The notes beneath the pieces are model-generated. The model was given only the letters and a program-made list of their open reading frames with translations. It did not search any database and was not told where the DNA came from. DNA of 64,000 bases, from assembly GCF_003018255.1 (NCBI RefSeq), contig NZ_CP027440.1. One strand, given 5' to 3'. The translations under genes and the position numbers were made by a program. The DNA is from Escherichia coli. GTDB lineage: Bacteria > Pseudomonadota > Gammaproteobacteria > Enterobacterales > Enterobacteriaceae. This document shows, piece by piece, positions 5,599 through 47,085 of this stretch; the stretch's first letter is position 1; the number at the start of each line of letters is the position of its first letter.

Positions 5599-7832
<2,234 letters not shown>

Positions 7833-7886
7833 CGGCGTGCCGGATACGGCGCAAACGTCGCATCCGGCATTATCACATCAGCGCAT

Positions 7887-9035
7887 TTACCAGGCGGTAT
7901 GGTAAAGCTCTACAATATCCTCAAGCGTTGCTTCACGCGGGTTGCCACCGGTACAAACATCATCCAGTGCCGCCTGCGCCAGTGTCGGAATATCTTCCTT
8001 ACGTACACCAACATCACGTAAATGTGGCGGAATACCGACATCACGGTTGAGAGCAAACACCGCTTCAACAGCGGCATTACGCGCCTCTTCCAGGCTCATA
8101 CCTTCCACTTTCACGCCCATAACGCGTGCGATATCGCGGTACTTCTCACCGGTAAAGTCAGCGTTATAACGCATAACATGCGGTAACAGGATGGCGTTCG
8201 CAACACCGTGTGGCGTGTTGTAAAACGCGCCCAGTGGATGCGCCATACCATGCACCAACCCTAACCCAACATTCGAGAATCCCATACCCGCAACATACTG
8301 CCCGAGCGCCATTTCTTCTCCGGCATCCTTATCACCAGCAACCGATCCTCGCAGCGCCCCAGCAATGATTTCAATCGCTTTAATGTGCAGCGCATCGGTT
8401 AGCGCCCACGCGCCACGGGTAATATACCCCTCAATAGCATGAGTGAGCGCATCGACACCCGTCGCAGCTTTCAGCGCTGGAGGCATACCATCCATCATGT
8501 CAGCGTCAATAAACGCCACCTGCGGGATATCATGCGGATCAACGCAAACAAACTTGCGCCGTTTTTCTTCGTCAGTGATCACGTAGTTAATGGTCACTTC
8601 TGCCGCAGTACCTGCTGTGGTGGGGATTGCCAGAATCGGTACACTGGGTTTATTGGTCGGGGAAAGCCCTTCCAGGCTACGCACATCGGCAAACTCCGGG
8701 TTGTTGCTGATAATGCCAATCGCTTTACAAGTATCCTGTGGAGAACCGCCACCAATAGCGATCAGGTAATCCGCGCCGCTATTCTGGAATACACCGAGCC
8801 CTTCTTTGACGACAGTAATTGTTGGGTTCGGCACTACGCCGTCGTAAATCGCCCATGCCAGCCCTGCAGCATCCATCTTATCGGTCACTTTTGCCACCAC
8901 GCCGCATTGCACCAGCGTTTTATCGGTGACGATCAGCGCCTTCTGATAACCACGGCGTTTCACCTCATCGGTTAAAGACCCAACAGCCCCCCGACCAAAC
9001 CATGCCGTTTCGTTCAGAATCATTCTGTTAGCCAT
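7887..9035 (-). CDS. fucO: L-1,2-propanediol oxidoreductase (lactaldehyde reductase)
   Basis: Iron-containing alcohol dehydrogenase MANRMILNETAWFGRG... Start taken at the second Met of the track ORF (382 aa). Confidence 0.95.
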   Translation of the reverse strand: MANRMILNETAWFGRGAVGSLTDEVKRRGYQKALIVTDKTLVQCGVVAKVTDKMDAAGLAWAIYDGVVPNPTITVVKEGLGVFQNSGADYLIAIGGGSPQDTCKAIGIISNNPEFADVRSLEGLSPTNKPSVPILAIPTTAGTAAEVTINYVITDEEKRRKFVCVDPHDIPQVAFIDADMMDGMPPALKAATGVDALTHAIEGYITRGAWALTDALHIKAIEIIAGALRGSVAGDKDAGEEMALGQYVAGMGFSNVGLGLVHGMAHPLGAFYNTPHGVANAILLPHVMRYNADFTGEKYRDIARVMGVKVEGMSLEEARNAAVEAVFALNRDVGIPPHLRDVGVRKEDIPTLAQAALDDVCTGGNPREATLEDIVELYHTAW

Positions 9036-23246: not shown

Positions 23247-23323
<77 letters not shown>

Positions 23324-23356
23324 ATTAAAATTTGATGAAGTAAAGCAGTACGGTGA

Positions 23357-23433
<77 letters not shown>

Positions 23434-23466
23434 ATCAAAATTTGATGAAATAAAGCAGTACGGTGA

Positions 23467-23529
<63 letters not shown>

Positions 23530-23543
<14 letters not shown>

Positions 23544-36601: not shown

Positions 36602-36980
36602 TTTCTTTTTTTGTTCAAATAGTTACTCCGAAGAAAAAATAGAGATAATAAACATTAATAAACCAATATATATAGGTACCAATCAATCAGATAAGGTGCT
36701 TATTACTGCGTGTAATCATTGGGTGCTTAATTCTAGAGATATTATAGACATATTCAATCTAAGTATAAAGCATGATGATTATGGCGAAATAAACAGAATG
36801 TATTATTGGTTACCTTGTGAAATTAGAGGGAGACTAATGTATGACGGAATAGAATGGAGTTTTGTTATCAATGCTGCTGCAACAGCAATGTGGATGAGCA
36901 ATGATAAAGAGATTTACTGGGGATGCAATAAAAAAGCATGCGATAATTTCTTTTTATTACCATATGATGGGATGAGGTAA
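36543..36980 (+). CDS. Candidate cognate immunity protein (periplasmic, signal peptide)
   Basis: Overlaps the 3' end of the amidase gene. N-terminus MIKLVIKQKVKALISIVLINFFFCSNSYS looks like a Sec signal peptide; Cys-rich; AT-rich. Start among ATG 36531/36537/36543 is uncertain. Confidence 0.5.
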   Translation: MIKLVIKQKVKALISIVLINFFFCSNSYSEEKIEIININKPIYIGTNQSDKVLITACNHWVLNSRDIIDIFNLSIKHDDYGEINRMYYWLPCEIRGRLMYDGIEWSFVINAAATAMWMSNDKEIYWGCNKKACDNFFLLPYDGMR

Positions 36981-37085
36981 ATCACAGTTAATAAAGCAAA
37001 AACATTATGGACAAGTGAATTAATCAGATAGTTCAAGCACCTTGAGATTCATTGTATTCATATTTCAGAATAACGGATTATTACA

Positions 37086-38300
37086 ATGCCCATCCGACTT
37101 AATACCATTCCCGACGCAGAACCCTATCCCGCACCGCCAGCCCGCATTAAATGGCTGTCAGCCTTATTACTGATGCTGTCTGTTGGTGTGGCAATAACCT
37201 CATTATTCGCCAGCGATGAACTGGCAAAAAACGGCCCATATTTCTGGGGGCTGGCCTGCGGCGTGCCTGCTTTTATCTGGTCACTGGTCGGTTCGGTGCG
37301 CTGGCTGGTATTTGTCACTCAACATATTCGTGCCGATGCCTGGAATCAACGTCGCGAAGAAGTCATTTTGCAGGAAACACGGCGGGGACGACGGGCGTTG
37401 CAGATACTCAGTTTTTCCGTACAAACCGCGCTGAATGGTGATTCCGTCGCAGAAACTACAACAGCATTTCTGGCGCGTCATCAGGTGTTGAATACTTACG
37501 CTGATTTGCGCGGAGAAGATACCGTGCGTCGCAGTGTCATTCCCGTATTAACCAATAAACCGGTTACCGGGCGTTTATCCGAAATTATTTCCCGCCTTTT
37601 TATTGATATCAGACCGCAATTGTTTCTGCTGCCCCCTGATTTTCATATCAACGTACTACTGGAAATTGATGCGCCGCTTTCAGGGGCCTCCGTGAGAACT
37701 ATCTGGCAGGACGAATGGCAAAAAGCCGGACTCCCCGAAGCCCGTCTGTTTTCTGCCCCGGAGCCGGGGCTGGCCGCCGTGGACGACTGGCTGGACAACT
37801 TTATTCAGGAAAAGGCCGTACTGCTGGTGATTTCCGTGCGTCTGGAACCGAAGAACCCGGAACGGACGGCAGAATCCGCCACCGCGCTGTTGCTGGCAAA
37901 CCGACTGACGCAAACCGCGCTGACGCCGCTGGCCCTGCTGCATCGTCCTGAACGTATCACAGATACGGAGATGATGGCGTCAGGCATTGCACAGGCGCTG
38001 GACTGGATGCCGGTGCAGCCAGATGCCATATCCGGCATGTGGACAGTCGAACTGAACAGGGAACAGCGCGCCTCGCTGCTGTCATCTAACCAGCCGTTTA
38101 CTCAGGAAGCCCTGATGTACGAGCTGGATGCCTTTCTGGGGTGCTCCGGACCGGCAGCGCCGTGGCTGTCCGTCGCTGCGGCAACGCTGGCGGCAATACA
38201 ATCACAACACCCCCAACTGACGCTCAGCGGCGTTCAGAACGGGCATTATTCATGGGCGACCATGGTGTCGCCATTCGTTTCCCCTCAGGAGGCATCATAG
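37086..38300 (+). CDS. Uncharacterised T6SS-cluster inner-membrane protein (two N-terminal TM helices plus cytoplasmic domain)
   Basis: 404 aa, GC-rich like the core genes. TM segments WLSALLLMLSVGVAITSLF and FWGLACGVPAFIWSLVGSVRWLVFV. Stop TAG overlaps the tssM GTG start. Confidence 0.6.
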   Translation: MPIRLNTIPDAEPYPAPPARIKWLSALLLMLSVGVAITSLFASDELAKNGPYFWGLACGVPAFIWSLVGSVRWLVFVTQHIRADAWNQRREEVILQETRRGRRALQILSFSVQTALNGDSVAETTTAFLARHQVLNTYADLRGEDTVRRSVIPVLTNKPVTGRLSEIISRLFIDIRPQLFLLPPDFHINVLLEIDAPLSGASVRTIWQDEWQKAGLPEARLFSAPEPGLAAVDDWLDNFIQEKAVLLVISVRLEPKNPERTAESATALLLANRLTQTALTPLALLHRPERITDTEMMASGIAQALDWMPVQPDAISGMWTVELNREQRASLLSSNQPFTQEALMYELDAFLGCSGPAAPWLSVAAATLAAIQSQHPQLTLSGVQNGHYSWATMVSPFVSPQEAS

Positions 38301-41300
38301 TGGTTCCGGGATTAAACCGTCTCCGGCCCCGTTCGGTTTCAGGGCCTGCCATCGTCATGACCGTGGCCGTTGTGGTTGCGCTTTGCACGTTTATTCACCG
38401 TAAACCGGCATTGCTGGGCGTTGAACCGGGTAGTTCACAGCAAATGTACTGGATGGCTGGCGTGATTGCCGCAGGTGTGGTCTTTCTGATTATCATGGGG
38501 GTTTATCATCTGCTGAACCGCCACGCTGCCGTACAGAGCTTTGAACTCCACAGACAGCTTGCCGCCGGAGATGACTATCGGGCGGTGACGACAAAGAAAG
38601 CCGACAGCCGTCATCCGGCAATGGTGGAACTCGCCGCCTTCCTGCGCGACCGCTACGGCCCATTCTGGCGGCGTAAAATCCGCCTGCTGCTGGTGACCGG
38701 CGAGCCTGAACAGGCAGAGGCCATCGCGCCGGGGCTGACCGGGCAACACTGGCTGGAGGGCGACCACACGGTGCTGATATATGGCGGCAGGCCATCTACA
38801 GAGCCTGATGTCGCGCTACTGACCGCCTTAAAAAAACTGCGCCGCAGCCGTCCGCTGGACGGCATCATCTGGCCGCTGACAGAAGAACAGAGCCGCCAGA
38901 CGGCGCAACTCGACAAAGGCTGGCGCGAACTGATAAACGGCGGTAAGCGACTCGGTTTTCAGGCTCCACTCTATTTGTGGCAGGTCTGTGACAACGGTGA
39001 TTATCAGACCGGACGCCCCCTGCAAAGCGTCGGCTGCCTGCTGTCGGAACGCTGTACCCCGGAACAACTGGCTGCAATGCTGGAAGCACAAACCCTGCCG
39101 CTGACGGAACAGGGCATGTCGCAGCTGCTTACCGATAACCGCCATGATTTCCTGCTGCGTCTGGCCCATACCCTTGCAGAGCGGGGTATCGCTCACTGGC
39201 AAAGTATCCTGAAACCGCTGCTGGCAGGCGGCGCATTTTCCTCCCTGCGCCTGCGTGGCCTGATGTTCAGCCCGCCGCTTACCGCCGTACCGGAAGCCGC
39301 ACCTCATGCGTGGCTGCCGTCACCGGTCTGGGCGGGCGTGACCGGCGATAACGCGCGGGGTCGCACGGTGGGCTTTCCGTGGCTGCGTATCACGCTGATG
39401 TCTGCTGTCTGCGTACTGGCGATATGGGGGGCCGGAATGACGACCTCGTTCTTCGCCAACCGCGCACTTGTTCAGGAAACCAGCATCCAGACGGCGCGTG
39501 CACTCGATATCCGTCTGCCGCTGTCTGAACAACTGGTGGCGCTGCATACCCTGCAGGGTGAACTGGAGCGCCTGCAGTACCGTATCCGGGAGGGTGCGCC
39601 GTGGTATCAGCGTTTTGGCCTTGAACGTAACCAGCAACTGCTCGCCGCCGCCTTTCCCGGCTATGCGCAGGCGGCAAACCGGCTGGTGCGCGACGTGGCC
39701 GTTGACCATCTGCAACAGCAACTGAATGCCTTTGTCGCGCTGCCGCCCAATAGTCCGCAGCGTACCGCCACCGGCGAACAGCGCTATAAGCAGCTTAAGG
39801 CATTGCTGATGACTTCCCGCCCGGAAAAGGCCGACGCTGCCTTTTTCAGTACCACGCTGATGGCAGATGACCTGCGCTATGCAGGTGTACCGGAAGGTGT
39901 GCGTCAGAGCGTGTTGCCGTCACTGCTGACCTTCTGGATGGCGAATCTGCCGGAACACCCACAGTGGAAAACTTCGCCGCCACCGGAACTGACCGGCGCA
40001 GTGCGCAAAATCCTGCTGCGCCAGATTGGTGTGCGCAATGCCGAAAACACTCTCTACCAGAACGTACTGCAACAGGTGTCCCGCAACTACGCCGATATGA
40101 CGCTGGCGGACATGACCGGGGATACGCTCACCGAATCTCTTTTCAGTACGGAGCAGACGGTGCCGGGGATGTTTACCCGTCAGGCGTGGGAAGGACAGGT
40201 CAGGGAAGCCATCGAGCAGGTGGTGACGGCGCGGCGCGAGGAAATCGACTGGGTACTCAGCGACCGCCAGCAGGATACCTCTGCGGATATCTCGCCGGAT
40301 ATGCTGCGTAACCGTCTCACTTCACGCTACTTTACCGACTTTGCCGGAAGCTGGCTGGCGTTTCTCAACAGCATTCGCTGGAAAAAGGAAGACTCGCTCT
40401 CCGGCATTCTCGACCAGTTGACGCTGATGGCCGATGCCCGCCAGTCACCGCTGATTGCGCTGACAGACACCCTCGCGTGGCAGGCGGCGGCTGGCAGGGA
40501 AAACCGTGGCCTGTCAGACTCGCTGGCGAAATCGGCACAGGAACTGTTTAACGGCAAGGAGAAAACGCCGCAGCAATCCCGTGAAGGCGACGTGCCTGTC
40601 GGGCCGCTGGATAAAACCTTCGCGCCGCTGCTGCGGTTGCTTGGCGATAAGGCAGGAGGCGGCGACAGCCAGCTGAGCCTGCAGACCTACCTCACCCGAG
40701 TCACCCGCGTGCGCCTCAAACTGCAACAGGTGACCAACGCCCCTGACCCGCAGGAGATGACCCAGCAACTGGCGCAGACGGTCTTACAAGGCAAAACCGT
40801 TGACCTTACCGACACCCGCGACTATGGCAGCCTGATAGCCGCCAGTCTGGGTGAAGAGTGGAGTGGCTTCGGTCAGGCGCTGTTCGTCCGCCCGGTGGAG
40901 CAGTCATGGCGGCAGGTGCTGACGCCTGCGGCAGACAGCCTGAACCGCCAGTGGCAGCGGGCGATTGTCAGCCACTGGGATCAGGACTTCGCTGGTCGCT
41001 ACCCGTTCAAAGCCTCACAAAACGATGCCTCCCTCCCCCTGCTGGCGCAGTACCTGCGCGATGACGGGCGCATCAACCAGTTTATCGCCGCCAATCTTTC
41101 CGGCGTACTGAAACGTGAAGGCCGCTACTGGGTGGCTGACGCCATGAACACGCAGGGGCTGACAGTCAATCCGGACTTTATTCGCGCCCTGAACCGCCTG
41201 CGCGATGTGGCCGATACCGCCTTTGCCAGCGGCGATGCAGGGATACATTTTGAACTGCGGGCAAAACCGGCGCGCGACGTGATGAAGACGCATCTGGTGA

Positions 41301-41683
41301 TTGACGGGCAGGAGCTGGAATATTTCAACCAGAAGGAACGCTGGCAGCGTTTTAACTGGCCGGATGAACAGTGGCAACCCGGCGCATCGCTGAGCTGGAC
41401 CAGTACGCAGGCGATGGAACGCATACTGGCGGATTATCGGGGAAGCTGGAGCCTTATTCGCCTGCTGGAACAGGCGCAGGTGACACCGGTGGACAGCAGT
41501 ACCTTTAAAGTGGTGTGGAAAGCGCAGGACGGCCTGCCGCTGAATTACCTGCTGCGGGTTGAACAGGGTAAAGGGCCGCTGGCGCTGCTGGAACTGAAAA
41601 ACTTCCGCCTGCCGGGACAGGTGTTCCTGACCGGCAGGAGTATGAAGGATGCGGAAGAATACGGGGAAGACGCCGATGAGTGA
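38300..41683 (+). CDS. tssM: T6SS membrane-complex protein TssM (IcmF-like)
   Basis: Start placed at GTG 38300 with AGGAGG at 38287-38292, giving 1127 aa with the canonical TM1-TM2-cytoplasmic-TM3-periplasmic layout. The track's ATG 38141 would overlap the upstream gene by 160 nt. Confidence 0.85.
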   Translation: MVPGLNRLRPRSVSGPAIVMTVAVVVALCTFIHRKPALLGVEPGSSQQMYWMAGVIAAGVVFLIIMGVYHLLNRHAAVQSFELHRQLAAGDDYRAVTTKKADSRHPAMVELAAFLRDRYGPFWRRKIRLLLVTGEPEQAEAIAPGLTGQHWLEGDHTVLIYGGRPSTEPDVALLTALKKLRRSRPLDGIIWPLTEEQSRQTAQLDKGWRELINGGKRLGFQAPLYLWQVCDNGDYQTGRPLQSVGCLLSERCTPEQLAAMLEAQTLPLTEQGMSQLLTDNRHDFLLRLAHTLAERGIAHWQSILKPLLAGGAFSSLRLRGLMFSPPLTAVPEAAPHAWLPSPVWAGVTGDNARGRTVGFPWLRITLMSAVCVLAIWGAGMTTSFFANRALVQETSIQTARALDIRLPLSEQLVALHTLQGELERLQYRIREGAPWYQRFGLERNQQLLAAAFPGYAQAANRLVRDVAVDHLQQQLNAFVALPPNSPQRTATGEQRYKQLKALLMTSRPEKADAAFFSTTLMADDLRYAGVPEGVRQSVLPSLLTFWMANLPEHPQWKTSPPPELTGAVRKILLRQIGVRNAENTLYQNVLQQVSRNYADMTLADMTGDTLTESLFSTEQTVPGMFTRQAWEGQVREAIEQVVTARREEIDWVLSDRQQDTSADISPDMLRNRLTSRYFTDFAGSWLAFLNSIRWKKEDSLSGILDQLTLMADARQSPLIALTDTLAWQAAAGRENRGLSDSLAKSAQELFNGKEKTPQQSREGDVPVGPLDKTFAPLLRLLGDKAGGGDSQLSLQTYLTRVTRVRLKLQQVTNAPDPQEMTQQLAQTVLQGKTVDLTDTRDYGSLIAASLGEEWSGFGQALFVRPVEQSWRQVLTPAADSLNRQWQRAIVSHWDQDFAGRYPFKASQNDASLPLLAQYLRDDGRINQFIAANLSGVLKREGRYWVADAMNTQGLTVNPDFIRALNRLRDVADTAFASGDAGIHFELRAKPARDVMKTHLVIDGQELEYFNQKERWQRFNWPDEQWQPGASLSWTSTQAMERILADYRGSWSLIRLLEQAQVTPVDSSTFKVVWKAQDGLPLNYLLRVEQGKGPLALLELKNFRLPGQVFLTGRSMKDAEEYGEDADE

Positions 41684-43286
41684 ACTGTTGCAAAAGCTGA
41701 CCCGTAGCTGTTTTGCCGACCGGGACGCACTGGACTCGGCGCGAACACAGGCGGCGCTGTGGCAGACATGGCTGCTGCCGGTGACGGCAGATACGCCGGT
41801 CGGGGAAGACCCCGGCTACCACGACGATTTCCTGCGTATCCGCGACGAGATGAACAAACTTTCCGGCGCGGATACGGACCTTATCTGCCAGCTTGCCGAA
41901 TCCCTGCTGCTGACGCAGGCAAAAGACGTGCGCATCGCCACTTACTATATCTGGGCGCGACTGCACCGCGATGGCGAACGCGGACTGGCTGAGGGGCTGG
42001 CGCTGTTAGCCGGACTGGTGGAACGCTTCGGTGCGCAACTGCTGCCCTCGCGCCCGGCAAGCCGAAAAATGGCGCTGGAGTGGCTGGCAGGGGAAAAGAT
42101 GCTCGACAGCCTTGCCCGCTACCCGGAAGTGGCAAAAGAGGATTTTGCGAACATTGTTGCCGCTCTTAATCAACTGACGGTTTCCTTCACTGCATGGCCC
42201 GAAGACCAGCATTCCCCCTCCCTGATGCCGCTGATTAACGCGCTGGAATCACGTCTGGCGCAGTCGGGTGGGATGAACGCGGTGGTGCCGCAGAACAGCA
42301 GCGGCGTTCCGGCACCGTCTTCCCCGGTGGATGCGCCACAGGTACAGACCATCACTTCCGGGCGCGACCTGCTCGACCAGGCGAAAGTGCTGGCCCGTTA
42401 TCTGAACGAACAGCCGCAGGGCTGGCTTTCAGCACACCGGCTGATGAAAACCCTGCGCTGGGACACGGTGCATGAACTGCCGCCGGATGTGGACGGAAAA
42501 ACCCGGCTGGCCCCGCCGCGCACAGAATCACGCAACCAGCTTAAGCGGCTGTATGCTCAGCAGAACTGGACGGAACTGCTGGAGCAGGCCGACCTGATGT
42601 TCAGCACCGGCGTCAGCCATTTCTGGCTGGACATTCAGTGGTATCTGCATCAGGCGCTGACTAAGGCGGGCGCACCGTGGGACAGGTGGACAGCGGTTAT
42701 CCGTCAGGACCTGGCGTTACTACTGGAACGCCTGCCGGGGCTGGAAAATCTGGCATGGAACGACGGCACGCCGTTCGCCGATGAGTTGACGCGCAACTGG
42801 ATAGCGCAGCAGGTCATGATGCGGGAAGACGGCGCATGGCTTGCGGGGAAAGCCGCTGTACCGACAGACGACGCCACAAACGACGTACTGGCGCTGGAGC
42901 CGGAAGCGCTGGAGATGGCAGACAGTCAGGGCGTGGAAGCGGCGCTGGGCTGGATACAGACCCGTCCGGGCATCACCACGGCACGCCAGCGCCTGTTATT
43001 GCGACTGCTGATGGCGCGGGTGGCGGAACAGTACGGTAAAAACGAGATGGCGCTCCTGCTGCTGGAAGAACTGGATATCGCCGCACAGGGGCTGACGCTG
43101 ACGCAGTGGGAGCCGGACCTGCTGTTTGAGGTAAAAGCCCGACAGCTGAAACAGCTGCGCCTGCGGGCGCACCGCTATGCGGATAAAGCCCTGCTGAACC
43201 GAAAAATGGAAATCCTGCTGGGAACGCTGGTGACAATAGATCCGGTACGGGCAGCGGTATTGTGTGATACGCAACATAAGGACTGA
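41676..43286 (+). CDS. tssA: T6SS protein TssA (ImpA N-terminal domain)
   Basis: MSELLQKLTRSCFADRDALDSARTQAALWQTWLLPVTADTPVGEDPGYHDDFLRIRDEM... (ImpA_N signature). ATG 41676 overlaps the tssM stop (ATGAGTGA). Confidence 0.8.
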   Translation: MSELLQKLTRSCFADRDALDSARTQAALWQTWLLPVTADTPVGEDPGYHDDFLRIRDEMNKLSGADTDLICQLAESLLLTQAKDVRIATYYIWARLHRDGERGLAEGLALLAGLVERFGAQLLPSRPASRKMALEWLAGEKMLDSLARYPEVAKEDFANIVAALNQLTVSFTAWPEDQHSPSLMPLINALESRLAQSGGMNAVVPQNSSGVPAPSSPVDAPQVQTITSGRDLLDQAKVLARYLNEQPQGWLSAHRLMKTLRWDTVHELPPDVDGKTRLAPPRTESRNQLKRLYAQQNWTELLEQADLMFSTGVSHFWLDIQWYLHQALTKAGAPWDRWTAVIRQDLALLLERLPGLENLAWNDGTPFADELTRNWIAQQVMMREDGAWLAGKAAVPTDDATNDVLALEPEALEMADSQGVEAALGWIQTRPGITTARQRLLLRLLMARVAEQYGKNEMALLLLEELDIAAQGLTLTQWEPDLLFEVKARQLKQLRLRAHRYADKALLNRKMEILLGTLVTIDPVRAAVLCDTQHKD

Positions 43287-44698
43287 TGGCAATGGGAACA
43301 GGCTACTTTCTGGTCAGGGGGGACAAAACCACCTGCGGCGGCAAAATTATTGAAGGCGCGGACGACCATACGATCATGGGTATCCCGCAGGCGCGGGATA
43401 TGGACCGGGTCACCTGCGGCAGATATCCGGGAATGTTTATTATTGTGGGCGGCGTTCCTGAAACAGATATTCACGGCAGGCTGATGGCGGGGACGCTGGA
43501 CAGTCAGAGCAGTTGCCCGTGTAAGGCACGGTTTATTGCGTCAATGATGGATGATACGTATGAGACGGATGACGGGGAAAGTGAAGCGGAACAACATGCG
43601 CAGTCGGCGAAAAAGGATCTGACTTCTGGTTCTGATTCATCCTCTGATGATGTAAAACTGGATTACAGAATTAAATTATCAGGTAATAAGATACTGACGC
43701 CACTGAATATACCTGATTATAAAGAAATGATTAGCGGTGGTAGTACGAAGAATACAGAAAAAATAGATTTTACCATCACAAATAAAGGCGATGAGGCTGA
43801 AGCGCTTTCTCTGGAAGTGCTTGATGGTAATGAAGTGATTTATAGTGAACGGCAGACCGGTAAATATTGTGATAAGGGAGAGCATGCCTGGCAATGGGAT
43901 GGCTACAGTAATCAAGGCATACTGGATACAACTAAGATAAAAAGCAAATCACTACTCGTAAGACTGATTGCTTTATGTGGTGATATGATGATAAAAGTTG
44001 ATTATCCATTGAAAAATGCTGCGAAAGAAGAAGAGTGGGTTGATGTAAAAGTTGACAGAAATAATAAAGTGGTCGATATAACATGGAGATTATCTGTTAA
44101 GGATAGCGGTACAAAAGGCAGTAACCCTGAGTTATCGCCAATACCTTATAGCGATTTAGTTAGTCTTACTAAAAATGGCGTGGAGTTTTACTGGTCACGA
44201 AATGGAAGTCGCGGCGGGGGAATTGGTGGTAATATCGTTACAGCGATTGGGGTTTTTAAAGTAAATGTAAAGGCTGAGATAAATATTACTCCATCTATGC
44301 GAACTTTTGATTTGATATCATCGTTAGATCCAGATATGCAGTCGTCGGTAAGTCTTTTGGGGTTTGAAAAAATATACCATAACTATGGTGGCTATTATAA
44401 TAACAGCAAGGATGAAATAAAGGCTCTTCTATATAGTAATGAAAGATATAAATGGGATAGTGCTCATGAGATGGGACATAAAGTTATGGATAAATATGGT
44501 TCTGAATCATGGACACATAAGGGGACATCCACGCGGGGTCAAAGTACCATCCCTAATACTCCAATGCCATCTTCAGGAGAGATTGATATAATGAAATATG
44601 CAGATAGCTATGCACCTGATAGATATAAGAGATTGGTCGCGGCAGATGAAGATGTTCAGGCATTGATCTGGTTGAGCAGGGTGAGTTTTAATGATTAG
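43286..44698 (+). CDS. PAAR-domain protein with C-terminal HExxH (zincin-like) putative toxin domain; candidate specialised T6SS effector
   Basis: N-terminal about 85 aa is PAAR-like (GDKTTCGG...GIPQARDMDRVTCG...SSCPCKA) and GC-rich. The remainder is AT-rich and contains SAHEMGHKV. Start overlaps the tssA stop (TGATG). Confidence 0.7.
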   Translation: MAMGTGYFLVRGDKTTCGGKIIEGADDHTIMGIPQARDMDRVTCGRYPGMFIIVGGVPETDIHGRLMAGTLDSQSSCPCKARFIASMMDDTYETDDGESEAEQHAQSAKKDLTSGSDSSSDDVKLDYRIKLSGNKILTPLNIPDYKEMISGGSTKNTEKIDFTITNKGDEAEALSLEVLDGNEVIYSERQTGKYCDKGEHAWQWDGYSNQGILDTTKIKSKSLLVRLIALCGDMMIKVDYPLKNAAKEEEWVDVKVDRNNKVVDITWRLSVKDSGTKGSNPELSPIPYSDLVSLTKNGVEFYWSRNGSRGGGIGGNIVTAIGVFKVNVKAEINITPSMRTFDLISSLDPDMQSSVSLLGFEKIYHNYGGYYNNSKDEIKALLYSNERYKWDSAHEMGHKVMDKYGSESWTHKGTSTRGQSTIPNTPMPSSGEIDIMKYADSYAPDRYKRLVAADEDVQALIWLSRVSFND

Positions 44699-44713
44699 AA
44701 TAATTGTTTTTTA

Positions 44714-45115
44714 TTGTTTTTTTTGAGTGGGTGTACTTCACAAAAAGAGTATTCCAATATAGTCAGGATTGAGAATAGATGCTCCTCAGATATCGATGTC
44801 TTTATTCAGGGATATGTTTCCGGTTCTACGCTGATTTATCAGCATAATATACACTTGCCAGTTGGTGATAGTGATGTATTAGTATATTTTTCCACGGCAG
44901 ATATTGATGATGGTTTTAAATATGAGGGGGCATTCATGATATATAAAGATAGCCGCGGTGAATTGGATTATCCATTCACCATTTCATTGTCAGGGCGCGA
45001 AAAAAAATTTGGGAAGAATGACTTAATTAGATTATCACGAGATATTTCAACAAAAGACGACAGAAAATACGGAGTTATAAGATATATAATCGACAGTCAG
45101 GAAATTTGCCCGTGA
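44714..45115 (+). CDS. Candidate immunity lipoprotein for the PAAR-HExxH protein (5' end disrupted or phase-variable at a T8 tract)
   Basis: Track ORF starts at TTG 44714 (FFLSGCTSQ..., lipobox LSGC without a signal peptide). ATG 44691 in another frame encodes MIRIIVFYCFF then stops; one extra T in the T8 run (44717-44724) would fuse it into a canonical lipoprotein signal peptide. Confidence 0.5.
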   Translation: MFFLSGCTSQKEYSNIVRIENRCSSDIDVFIQGYVSGSTLIYQHNIHLPVGDSDVLVYFSTADIDDGFKYEGAFMIYKDSRGELDYPFTISLSGREKKFGKNDLIRLSRDISTKDDRKYGVIRYIIDSQEICP

Positions 45116-45324
45116 TGTTTTAAGTTATTCGTTCACAATTATTAATTATTGCCTATTATGTAAGGTAAATTTAATTTGGTTCAGAAAAGACAAGAATACA
45201 TCATTATTAAAATCAATAAGTCAGCAACTATCCATAATATATTCACATAGAATAAATTTAACTATGATGTTACTTCTACACCTGCATGATATTCACTTTC
45301 AATGAAAGGAAGATAATCCCTCCG

Positions 45325-47085
45325 ATGGACGATCTAACCCAACGCTACTACGAAGCCGAAATGCGCTACCTGCGTGAAGCGGGGAAAGAATTTGCGCAGG
45401 CTTACCCCGACCGCGCCGCGATGCTCAATCTTGATAAACCCGGCGCACGCGATCCCTATGTGGAGCGCCTGTTCGAAGGCTTCGCTTTTTTAATGGGTCG
45501 CCTGCGTGAAAAGCTGGATGACGACCTGCCCGAACTGACCGAGGGGCTGGTCAGCCTGCTGTGGCCTCACTACCTGCGAACCATCCCGTCACTTTCCGTG
45601 GTTGAACTGTCGACAGATCACCGGCAGATGAAGCAGAGCGAAACACTGAGTAATTTTCAGGTATTGTCGCGTCCTGTTGGCGAGCGCAGAACCCGCTGTG
45701 TCTACAGTGCTACGCGGGATATCACGCTGCATCCGCTGGCGCTGCCGGACGTGTCATTGCAATATGAACCGGACGGGCGCTCGGTTATCCGTCTGCGCTT
45801 TGAATGCGGCCCGCTGGTTGGTGACTGGTCACAGATCGATCTATCCCGTTTGCCGCTCTATCTCAATGCCGACAGCCCGGTGGCCTGTGCGCTGCACCGG
45901 GCTTTAACGCTTGGCACCCAGCAGTTCTGGCTGCGTCTGCCGGGGCAGGAACGCCGTGTGCTGGACGCGCACTTTTCCCCGATGGGTTTTGATGACAATG
46001 ACCGACTGTGGCCAAAAGGCGAGTCGGCGTTCAGCGGCTACCAGTTGCTGCTGGAGTATTTCACCTTCCGCGAAAAGTTTATGTTTGTGGCGCTGAACGG
46101 GCTGGAGAACGTCATCTGGCCGGAAGGGATGAGCGGCTTTGAGATTGACGTGGTGCTGAGCGAGAACTGGCCTCACGACCTGCCGTTTGACAGCGATAAT
46201 ATCCGTCTGCACTGCGTGCCGGTCATCAACCTGTTCCCGCTGGAAGCCGATCCGTTACACCTTTCGCCACTGGAAAACGAATTTCTGCTGCGCCCGATGC
46301 GTATTCAGGACGGGCATACCGAGATTTATTCCGTCGACAACATTATTTCTTCGCGCCATACCGGCAGTCAGGCGTATGTCCCGTTTTCCAGCTTTCGTCA
46401 CCGGGGCGGGATGCTGCGCCACGATGCACCGGAACGCTATTACCATACGCGGGTTAAGCGCGGCCCTTCCGGCCTGCATGATACCTGGCTGATTCTGGGC
46501 GGCGATGCGTTTGATTCCGACCGGATGCTGGAGGATGAAACGCTCTCTTTAAGCCTGACCGGCACTAACGGACAGCTTCCCCGTAAGGCTTTACAGAGCA
46601 CGCTGCTTGATACGCCAGTTCATGCCTCACAGAACGTCCTGCGGGTGCGCAACCTGTGCGCCCCGACGCAGCCCTGTTATCCCCCGGCGCGTGACCGCTT
46701 CCACTGGCGGGTGCTCAGCCACCTCGGTTCTAACTTTCTTTCAATGATGGATAACGCCGAAATTCTGCGCGGCACGCTGGCGCTGTACGACTGGACCGAA
46801 AGCGAGATGAACCGCCGCCGTCTGTCGGCGATTGTCGACGTTCAGCACAGCCTGATACAGCGTTTTGAAAGAGGCTTTCTGCTGCGTGGCGTGGATATTC
46901 AGGTGACGCTGGACAGCACCGGCTTTGCCGGAGAGGGTGATATCACGCTGTTTGGCGAACTGCTGCACCGCTTCTTTGCACTGTATGCCGATATCCACTT
47001 ATTCACTCAACTGACCTTAATTCTGCAACCCACAGGAAAGTGCCTGCAATGGACAGAGCATCACAGCCAGCGCGTACCGGGCTGA
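45325..47085 (+). CDS. tssF: T6SS baseplate protein TssF
   Basis: MDDLTQRYYEAEMRYLREAGKEFAQAYPDRAAMLNL... (typical TssF N-terminus), 586 aa from ATG 45325 with AAGGAAG upstream; the track begins at 45286. Confidence 0.88.
   Translation: MDDLTQRYYEAEMRYLREAGKEFAQAYPDRAAMLNLDKPGARDPYVERLFEGFAFLMGRLREKLDDDLPELTEGLVSLLWPHYLRTIPSLSVVELSTDHRQMKQSETLSNFQVLSRPVGERRTRCVYSATRDITLHPLALPDVSLQYEPDGRSVIRLRFECGPLVGDWSQIDLSRLPLYLNADSPVACALHRALTLGTQQFWLRLPGQERRVLDAHFSPMGFDDNDRLWPKGESAFSGYQLLLEYFTFREKFMFVALNGLENVIWPEGMSGFEIDVVLSENWPHDLPFDSDNIRLHCVPVINLFPLEADPLHLSPLENEFLLRPMRIQDGHTEIYSVDNIISSRHTGSQAYVPFSSFRHRGGMLRHDAPERYYHTRVKRGPSGLHDTWLILGGDAFDSDRMLEDETLSLSLTGTNGQLPRKALQSTLLDTPVHASQNVLRVRNLCAPTQPCYPPARDRFHWRVLSHLGSNFLSMMDNAEILRGTLALYDWTESEMNRRRLSAIVDVQHSLIQRFERGFLLRGVDIQVTLDSTGFAGEGDITLFGELLHRFFALYADIHLFTQLTLILQPTGKCLQWTEHHSQRVPG

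Follow-up and report, generated by a model that had tools for sequence, protein, structure and literature searches.

The window described here is a stretch of 64,000 nucleotides of Escherichia coli DNA (contig NZ_CP027440.1, assembly GCF_003018255.1) which contains a type VI secretion system (T6SS) cluster. Within this cluster lies a gene for a PAAR protein with a long C-terminal extension, a putative effector, followed directly by a small open reading frame (ORF) which is a candidate immunity gene (Table 1). The cluster runs in the order tssB, tssC, tssK, tssL, an OmpA-type tagL, hcp, clpV, vgrG (33354-35834), three small genes, tssM, tssA, and the effector gene. After the effector gene come the small ORF, tssF, tssG, tssJ, tssE, and a second TssA-like gene with a VasL domain. 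All T6SS core genes around the effector are open, and this gene content and order is known as T6SS-1 in work on E. coli (PMC10711316). The stop codon of tssA and the ATG of the effector share an A (TGATG, 43284-43288). An alternative start is the second ATG at 43292, two codons further on, which is chosen by the Prokaryotic Genome Annotation Pipeline (PGAP) where complete E. coli genomes carry the gene in identical or almost identical form. The product name given by PGAP to the copies in relatives is simply "PAAR domain-containing protein". The protein BHI65250.1 from E. coli JNE112863 is identical to that of the window.

The GC content is 0.614 in tssA and 0.565 in the PAAR part of the effector gene, where it reaches 0.65 at third codon positions (GC3). 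Over the codons for aa 86-470 it is 0.386 (GC3 0.32), against about 0.6 in the flanking DNA. It is 0.356 in the small ORF and 0.573 in tssF. A promoter and terminator scan of positions 43000-45400 found sites that were no commoner than in shuffled sequence. An initial annotation of the window had described an ORF which overlaps the tssA stop codon and joins an N-terminal PAAR domain in GC-rich DNA to an AT-rich remainder containing the motif SAHEMGHKV. This description is borne out, with the motif at aa 392-400. The AT-rich remainder does hold an HExxH domain, as had been proposed; however, it consists of two domains, an immunoglobulin (Ig)-like sandwich and then the catalytic domain, and not of one.

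Table 1. Features of the PAAR effector gene, the candidate immunity gene and the adjoining spacer (positions in the window).
Feature	Position	Strand	Remarks and basis
PAAR-Ig-metallopeptidase effector gene	43286..44698	+	470 aa; ORF list
PAAR spike-tip domain, aa 1-85	43286..43540	+	Pfam PF05488, Foldseek, composition
Acidic/Ser-rich disordered linker, aa 86-120	43541..43645	+	GC drops here, 0.476
FlgD-type Ig-like beta-sandwich, aa 121-245	43646..44020	+	carries conserved WxWDGY..G..D motif
Catalytic domain, aa 246-470, metzincin-like zincin fold (predicted)	44021..44695	+	
HEMGH (H394 E395 M G397 H398), predicted zinc-binding/catalytic motif	44465..44479	+	sequence, conservation
H411-K412 through G431-E-I-D-I-M436-K-Y438, candidate third zinc ligand and candidate Met-turn with Tyr	44516..44599	+	
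Candidate immunity gene, start as in relatives	44691..44726	+	window frame reads MIRIIVFYCFF and stops at TGA 44724-44726
Poly-T run, 6 T against 7 T in 77 of 79 related complete genomes	44707..44712	+	-1 frameshift in signal-peptide codons
Remaining ORF of candidate immunity lipoprotein	44714..45115	+	133 aa; starts TTG, ends ...QEICP
Very AT-rich spacer before tssF, end of low-GC insert	45116..45285		GC 0.247

The sole significant Pfam match in the effector is PAAR_motif (PF05488), found at aa 12-68 with an E-value of 9e-9. A full-length AlphaFold2 (AF2) model was built on 42 homologues. Its predicted local distance difference test (pLDDT) score is 88 overall and above 90 for aa 120-470, and falls below 50 at aa 88-120 in the linker. 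In Foldseek this model matches the E. coli PAAR protein c1882 (4jiw_D; probability 1.00, target template modelling score 0.71, 24% identity). Both by profile and by its conical beta fold, the effector is a member of the PAAR-repeat spike-tip proteins. The Ig-like domain is all-beta in the model, with pLDDT above 90. Pfam FlgD_ig matches it weakly (aa 169-211) in the protein of the window and significantly in homologues from Bacteroidota, and four of its residues (W204, D205, G206, and D214) are 92-100% conserved across the family. Most other Foldseek matches of the full-length model were Ig-like sandwiches of beta-glucuronidases. These are uninformative for the catalytic domain, and aa 246-470 were therefore modelled alone.

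The model of the isolated catalytic domain has a pLDDT of 92.9 and a predicted template modelling score (pTM) of 0.90. Its elements follow one another as a sheet, a helix, a long helix carrying HEMGH (aa 377-404 in the AF2 model), a loop with H411, a loop with GEIDIM436KY438, and a C-terminal helix (aa 454-462). Judged from the model, this is the order of elements found in metzincins. The HExGH motif is kept in 172 of 175 full-coverage family members; across the family H394, E395, and G397 do not vary, and conservation of H398 is 99%. Further strongly conserved positions are H411 (99%), K412 (90%), E432 (94%), D434 (99%), M436 (98%), and Y438 (100%), the last two lying between the HExxH helix and the final helix; S408 also belongs to the set conserved at 98-100%. 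As far as the alignment tells, HExxH is the most conserved feature of the toxin family, H411 is probably the third zinc ligand, and M436-x-Y438 probably forms the Met-turn. A metallopeptidase-like domain had been proposed from the HExxH motif alone; the near-invariance of this motif, and its place on the long helix of a metzincin-like zincin fold, strengthen that proposal.

The model resembles solved metzincins in fold, and its nearest structural neighbours are ADAMs, snake venom metalloproteases, fragilysin, EcxA, and CpaA. In sequence it stands well apart. Identity to metzincins (adamalysins/ADAMs, ulilysin/pappalysins, archaemetzincins, fragilysin, astacins, and matrix metalloproteinases) is 6-15%, and instead of HExxHxxGxxH/D the protein reads HEMGHKVMDKYGSESWTH, with Gly at +7 and His at +13 after the second His. 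The third His thus follows the second at a distance of 13 residues in place of 6, and the Gly turn is shifted. Unlike metzincins, the protein of the window carries neither a propeptide nor a signal peptide, and its assignment rests on a predicted model. Because of the noncanonical spacing the domain is termed "metzincin-like" here and is not filed in the metzincin clan.

No Pfam family matched the catalytic domain even at E<=10. When 34 family members were scanned individually against Pfam, there were marginal matches only, to M78, M43, and M10 at E>0.05. The polymorphic-toxin peptidases of Pfam (the Tox-MPTase families and Peptidase_M91) were considered and rejected, as the hidden Markov model (HMM) match is absent; the VgrG2b/Tpe1 gluzincin family (6H56), which combines HExxH with a distal Glu ligand, was rejected on fold class. 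NCBIfam gave just a sub-threshold FlgD-type flagellar match on the Ig domain (17 bits, cut-off 258), and PADLOC gave only noise around the HExxH helix. Searches of PDB sequences with the effector protein and with its profile returned no match. Full-text literature searches found no description of this toxin family, and none of six Salmonella accessions from the family is present in the table of the Salmonella STox catalogue, which lists names and single accessions without sequences (PMC12994826). The initial annotation had not recognised the C-terminal part as a characterised effector, and had looked to HMM and structure searches to place it. These searches leave the catalytic region outside Pfam and give it a predicted zincin fold, and neither the databases nor the literature supplied a name.

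Relatives of the effector are widespread. A word-indexed search found 99; when HMMER was run exhaustively against 1.84 billion representatives, there were 365 at E<=1e-3 and 226 at E<=1e-10. The 365 representative clusters are spread over Proteobacteria and Bacteroidota. Members from Enterobacteriaceae come from E. coli, Salmonella, Citrobacter, Lelliottia, and Serratia, and in Pseudomonas the module is fused to PAAR. In Limnobaculum, Hahella, and many Bacteroidota (Tenacibaculum, Zobellia, Pedobacter, and Elizabethkingia) the proteins are mostly stand-alone and about 370 aa long. The longer members carry various front domains, namely DUF4280 (PAAR-like, three members), Hcp/TssD, eCIS_core, PG_binding_1, and OmpA, the latter two in one family member each. 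Moreover, the PAAR domains of the Pseudomonas and E. coli proteins are unrelated in sequence, whereas their Ig-like and catalytic parts align throughout. To occur on differing delivery domains, as seen in these sequences, is how a polymorphic toxin module behaves. The initial annotation had the toxin recombined onto a conserved PAAR domain. A swap of the module onto an unrelated PAAR is supported by the comparison of E. coli with Pseudomonas only, while the divergence between E. coli alleles begins further along the protein, at about aa 244.

Small ORFs follow the toxin gene in five of the six other lineages checked. In Pseudomonas fluorescens (7403-8590 of the examined locus) the PAAR-toxin homologue occupies a different slot of a different T6SS cluster, between tssE and tssF. 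It is followed by two paralogous small genes and then by a third small ORF resembling a membrane protein. The two paralogues are 36% identical and the lipobox Cys is present only in the first, which has a lipoprotein leader and shares VYIENRC and a terminal ICP with the E. coli protein. Hahella has two small ORFs 3' of the toxin, both with LSGC, and Pedobacter has one with a lipoprotein leader; on a contig from gut Bacteroidota one or more small ORFs with such a leader also lie downstream. In Tenacibaculum (GCA_001027945.1, 2514-6800 of the examined locus) an Hcp (TssD) gene is directly followed by a stand-alone toxin homologue and then by seven small ORFs. These encode 110-142 aa and include two near-duplicate pairs; lipoprotein-like leaders are present in most of them and CarbopepD_reg_2 domains in several. 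They seem to form a poly-immunity array, from a family that is not related to the enteric lipoprotein.

In the window, the small ORF downstream of the effector is frameshifted. Alignment with relatives (strain 104 and JNE23-011) shows that the 133-aa ORF is the remnant of a 141-aa gene, whose ATG at 44691 overlaps the end of the toxin gene. The product is intact in strain 104 and in 76 further complete genomes, where it begins with MIRIIVFLLFFLSGC, a lipoprotein leader with Thr at +2. Two poly-T runs lie in the tract 44707-44724, with the lengths T7/T8 in these 77 intact genomes out of 79 and T6/T8 in the window, a state found in none of the 79. Since the first run has 6 T instead of 7, the frame from the ATG ends after 11 codons. 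The two closest genomes, JNE23-011 and JNE112863 (99.8% identical), are T7/T7, with the -1 change in the second run. One lineage thus shows two different -1 changes, and in JNE23-011 only an 86-aa fragment of the immunity gene is called by PGAP. These changes could be sequencing errors, real decay, or the mark of slippage-prone tracts. With the signal peptide lost through a one-base deletion, the toxin/immunity pair may be out of balance in this strain, unless the tract contains a sequencing error.

A 133-aa ORF with an LSGC lipobox had been reported at this position. The lipobox is there (44723-44734), four codons after the TTG start; the usable signal peptide is not, as the frameshifted ORF begins MFFLSGC and no longer qualifies as a lipoprotein precursor. 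The suggested immunity role fares better, since the intact relatives encode a lipoprotein which diversifies together with the catalytic domain. All three intact allele types have a signal peptide with a positively charged n-region and a hydrophobic core, ending in a lipobox of the form L-[AS]-[GA]-C, namely MIRIIVFLLFFLSGC in strain 104, MTRVVIALLFLAGC in AZ159, and MIRLIFSFLLCTLCAGC in CU42ET-1. A sequence search with the lipoprotein found enteric relatives only, and its connection with the Pseudomonas protein is based on a pairwise comparison and on motifs common to both. These are a conserved N-x-C, the C-terminal ICP, and the cysteine pair C31 and C140, which is kept in enteric and Pseudomonas proteins alike.

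The distribution within E. coli was followed in 5426 complete genomes. The 3' part of tssA together with the PAAR region is present in 1251 of them, with 95-99% identity in 1024. The toxin-immunity stretch is present in 987, some of which match only its first 461 bases. Identity of this stretch to the window is at least 95% in 159 genomes, 90-95% in one, 80-90% in 811, and 60-80% in 16. When proteins of three allele types were aligned they were near-identical to about aa 243 and divergent from there to the end. The onset of divergence thus coincides with the junction of the Ig-like and catalytic domains and not with the boundary of the PAAR and AT-rich parts. Compared with strain 104, AZ159 is 96.3% identical in PAAR plus Ig, 72.9% in the catalytic domain, and 66.0% in the lipoprotein; for CU42ET-1 the corresponding values are 97.9%, 44.2%, and 29.8%. 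The catalytic domain and the neighbouring gene therefore diverge jointly beside a conserved delivery part, which is the expected signature of an effector-immunity pair. Comparison of the C-terminal domains at this locus had been proposed with the initial annotation, and it supports that account: PAAR and Ig are kept while the catalytic domain and the lipoprotein vary. Overall the earlier interpretation was essentially right and needs three corrections, concerning the Ig-like domain, the boundary at which alleles diverge, and the frameshifted immunity gene.

Further observations concern individual strains. In CU42ET-1 (NZ_CP082773.1, 4116-4520 of the examined locus) an ORF of 134 aa overlaps the toxin stop codon, carries the leader given above, and ends in ...PSICP. 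It is unannotated by PGAP in RefSeq and looks like the cognate immunity gene of the third toxin allele. In E. coli E5 (NZ_CP104521.1) the PAAR-toxin/immunity region is broken by ISKpn26, and in E. coli EC43 (NZ_CP196712.1) by an element of the IS3 family of insertion sequences; these are independent disruptions of the module.

The reading that we favour, and hold to be likely, is that the gene encodes a specialised ("evolved") PAAR effector of an E. coli T6SS-1-type cluster, a zinc metallopeptidase directed at the target periplasm and paired with a lipoprotein as immunity protein. As expected of such effectors, delivery and toxin domains are fused within a T6SS locus, and the adjacent small gene co-varies with the toxin. 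In the proposed mechanism, the N-terminal PAAR cone would cap the VgrG trimer, so that the entire protein is shot into an adjacent Gram-negative cell. The cargo behind the disordered linker would comprise the Ig-like sandwich and the metzincin-like metallopeptidase, in which H394 and H398 would bind zinc and E395 would act as the general base, with H411 and the Met-turn in the probable roles assigned above. The enzyme would work in the target periplasm on a substrate of the cell envelope, either the peptide moiety of peptidoglycan or one of the proteins or lipoproteins located there. Sister cells would be shielded by the small lipoprotein encoded immediately downstream, which would bind and block the toxin. 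A periplasmic site is suggested because lipoprotein leaders occur in six lineages, the Cys pair is conserved in the enteric and Pseudomonas proteins, and fusions to peptidoglycan-binding or OmpA-like domains are occasionally found. The Thr at +2 makes it probable that the lipoprotein is anchored in the outer membrane and faces the periplasm.

Several points weigh against this reading. Secretion, toxicity, zinc binding, and neutralisation are all steps that we infer. The HExxH-(12)-H spacing is noncanonical for metzincins, which leaves the third ligand uncertain, and R353, conserved in 93% of the family, is absent from the window allele and from the commonest E. coli allele. The Limnobaculum homologue has no small ORF downstream, and what the small proteins of E. 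coli and Pseudomonas have in common in sequence is mostly confined to the signal peptide and the residues right behind it. In the window and, at the neighbouring tract, in the two closest relatives, a frameshift affects the immunity ORF. This last point, together with the loss of R353, the uniqueness of the T6/T8 state among complete genomes, and the truncated PGAP call in JNE23-011, gives some weight to a reading in which the module is real and has become decayed or silent in this strain, the T6SS not being fired or the toxin allele being weakened, or in which the poly-T change is a homopolymer sequencing error. We consider this a distinctly less likely state of affairs, though the leading alternative. 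The toxin ORF is intact, its catalytic domain is 100% identical to that of strain 104, whose immunity gene is intact, and the surrounding core genes are open. In addition, sequencing errors classically occur in runs of 6-8 T, and transcriptional or translational slippage, to which such runs are also prone, could restore some immunity product.

The remaining alternatives concern where, or whether, the enzyme acts. The nearest structural neighbours of the catalytic domain act on eukaryotic proteins, and some T6SS metallopeptidases have been proposed to be trans-kingdom effectors, VgrG2b for example (PMC6899460). The protease might accordingly be aimed at host or extracellular proteins, with the downstream lipoprotein unrelated or serving another role; we regard this as improbable, given that the small lipoprotein gene is tightly linked and often overlapping in six lineages, that its co-diversification with the catalytic domain is a signature of self-protection against an antibacterial toxin, that small genes form tandem arrays in Tenacibaculum and Pseudomonas, and that the family is present in free-living marine and soil bacteria. 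Action in the target cytoplasm, with the lipobox of the neighbouring gene incidental, seems more improbable still. Toxins fused to PAAR are often nucleases or NADases that act in the cytoplasm (PMC12994826), and the ORF of the window as it stands lacks a signal peptide; however, the intact alleles and the homologues from Pseudomonas, Hahella, and Bacteroidota all have lipoprotein-type leaders, the C31/C140 pair suits an oxidising periplasm, and a peptidoglycan-binding and an OmpA-like domain are each present in a single family member. Least probable of all, by a small step, is that the HExxH region lacks catalytic function and extends PAAR as a structural or adaptor part, for instance to load another cargo effector. 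Against such a role, the Glu and the two His of the catalytic motif persist across 175 members, stand-alone proteins without PAAR included, the modelled fold matches that of active proteases, and immunity-like genes follow the toxin. The presence of an Ig-like domain and the existence of adaptor extensions on PAAR and VgrG proteins, such as TTR domains (PMC11148199), are what speaks for it.

Beyond the specialised PAAR effector itself, a broader claim can be made on balance, if with less assurance. The effector would represent a widespread, experimentally unstudied family absent from Pfam, in which a FlgD-type Ig domain is joined to a metzincin-like metallopeptidase. It would be delivered by T6SS, and possibly by extracellular contractile injection systems (eCIS), in Proteobacteria and Bacteroidota and be matched by lipoprotein immunity families of its own. 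About one sixth of complete E. coli genomes would carry it within a PAAR gene that is treated as structural, and its periplasmic substrate, such as a specific envelope lipoprotein or a protein-peptidoglycan tether, may be a new T6SS target.

Other parts of the cluster and its surroundings merit a brief description. Three tandem tRNA-Met (CAT) genes (23247-23543) lie directly upstream of the T6SS cluster, beside mltA in a related genome, and are probably the insertion site of the island. Between vgrG and tssM (35867-38300), the ORF at 35867-36601 encodes an Amidase_2 domain (N-acetylmuramoyl-L-alanine amidase of the peptidoglycan recognition protein type; Pfam E 3.4e-11), and its counterpart in JNE23-011 is named "peptidoglycan recognition protein family protein" by PGAP. 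Two ORFs that match no family, of 149 aa and 404 aa, come after it, and it is probably a second, VgrG-linked cell-wall effector with an immunity gene. From 40285 to 45285 the window and JNE23-011 are nearly identical, with about four substitutions and the poly-T shift, and from 45477, in tssF, substitutions are dense. This change places a recombination breakpoint just past the low-GC insert and marks the window as a mosaic.

If the interpretation as an antibacterial pair is correct, between 875 and 987 of the 5426 complete E. coli genomes carry an overlooked effector-immunity pair in the core gene set of the cluster. The pair would exist in at least three strongly diverged specificity types and would bear on competition between strains in the gut and in poultry. 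The catalytic domain would stand for a peptidase family that is new, counts 365 representative clusters, and lacks a Pfam model. Mutagenesis of its active-site residues is straightforward, and the pair is both common in E. coli and easy to test. Studies of E. coli T6SS-1 seek effectors downstream of vgrG and list the PAAR gene of the cluster as structural (PMC10711316). Large catalogues of spike-fused domains, such as the 517 clusters of Geller et al. (2024; PMC11148199), may already hold the family unnamed.

Among known systems, the best functional analogy, as an analogy only, is offered by the toxins VgrG2b, Tpe1 (ACIAD0053), and SARI_02727, from the H2-T6SS of Pseudomonas aeruginosa, from Acinetobacter, and from Salmonella pathogenicity island 20, respectively. 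In these toxins a zinc HExxH peptidase domain is joined to, or borne by, a spike component of the T6SS and exerts its toxicity in the periplasm; for the C-terminal metallopeptidase of VgrG2b, envelope proteins and lipoproteins have been proposed as substrates (PMC6899460). The toxins are neutralised by envelope-located immunity proteins of the PA0261 type, which are lipoproteins in Enterobacteriaceae (PMC12992299). PAAR-Rhs toxins ending in Tox-MPTase4 or Peptidase_M91 resemble the effector of the window in having an N-terminal PAAR domain, a C-terminal HExxH peptidase, an adjacent immunity gene, and, as predicted for the latter, delivery by E. coli T6SS-1. Such metallopeptidase toxins are described from E. 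coli and Salmonella (Rhs-CT1; Ma et al., 2017, as cited in PMC6730261). However, they have an Rhs cage, lie in vgrG/eagR islands, and match PF15640 and M91, whereas the protein of the window is free of Rhs repeats, is encoded among the core genes in the stretch from tssA to tssF, and finds no counterpart in the toxin families of Pfam at the threshold given above. The closest parallel in position is T6EC1 of Yersinia pseudotuberculosis, a PAAR-DUF3289 (colicin M-like) effector with a DUF943 immunity protein (Geller et al., 2024; PMC11148199). It shares the tssM-tssA-PAAR slot, a toxin end acting in the periplasm, and an immunity protein facing the periplasm, and differs in toxin fold and immunity family. 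Its presence in the same slot shows that this slot hosts exchangeable toxins. A spike-fused toxin with a periplasmic target and a lipoprotein antidote follows a well-established logic, which makes the present pair a useful addition rather than a surprise: an uncharacterised toxin family inside a well-known kind of system.

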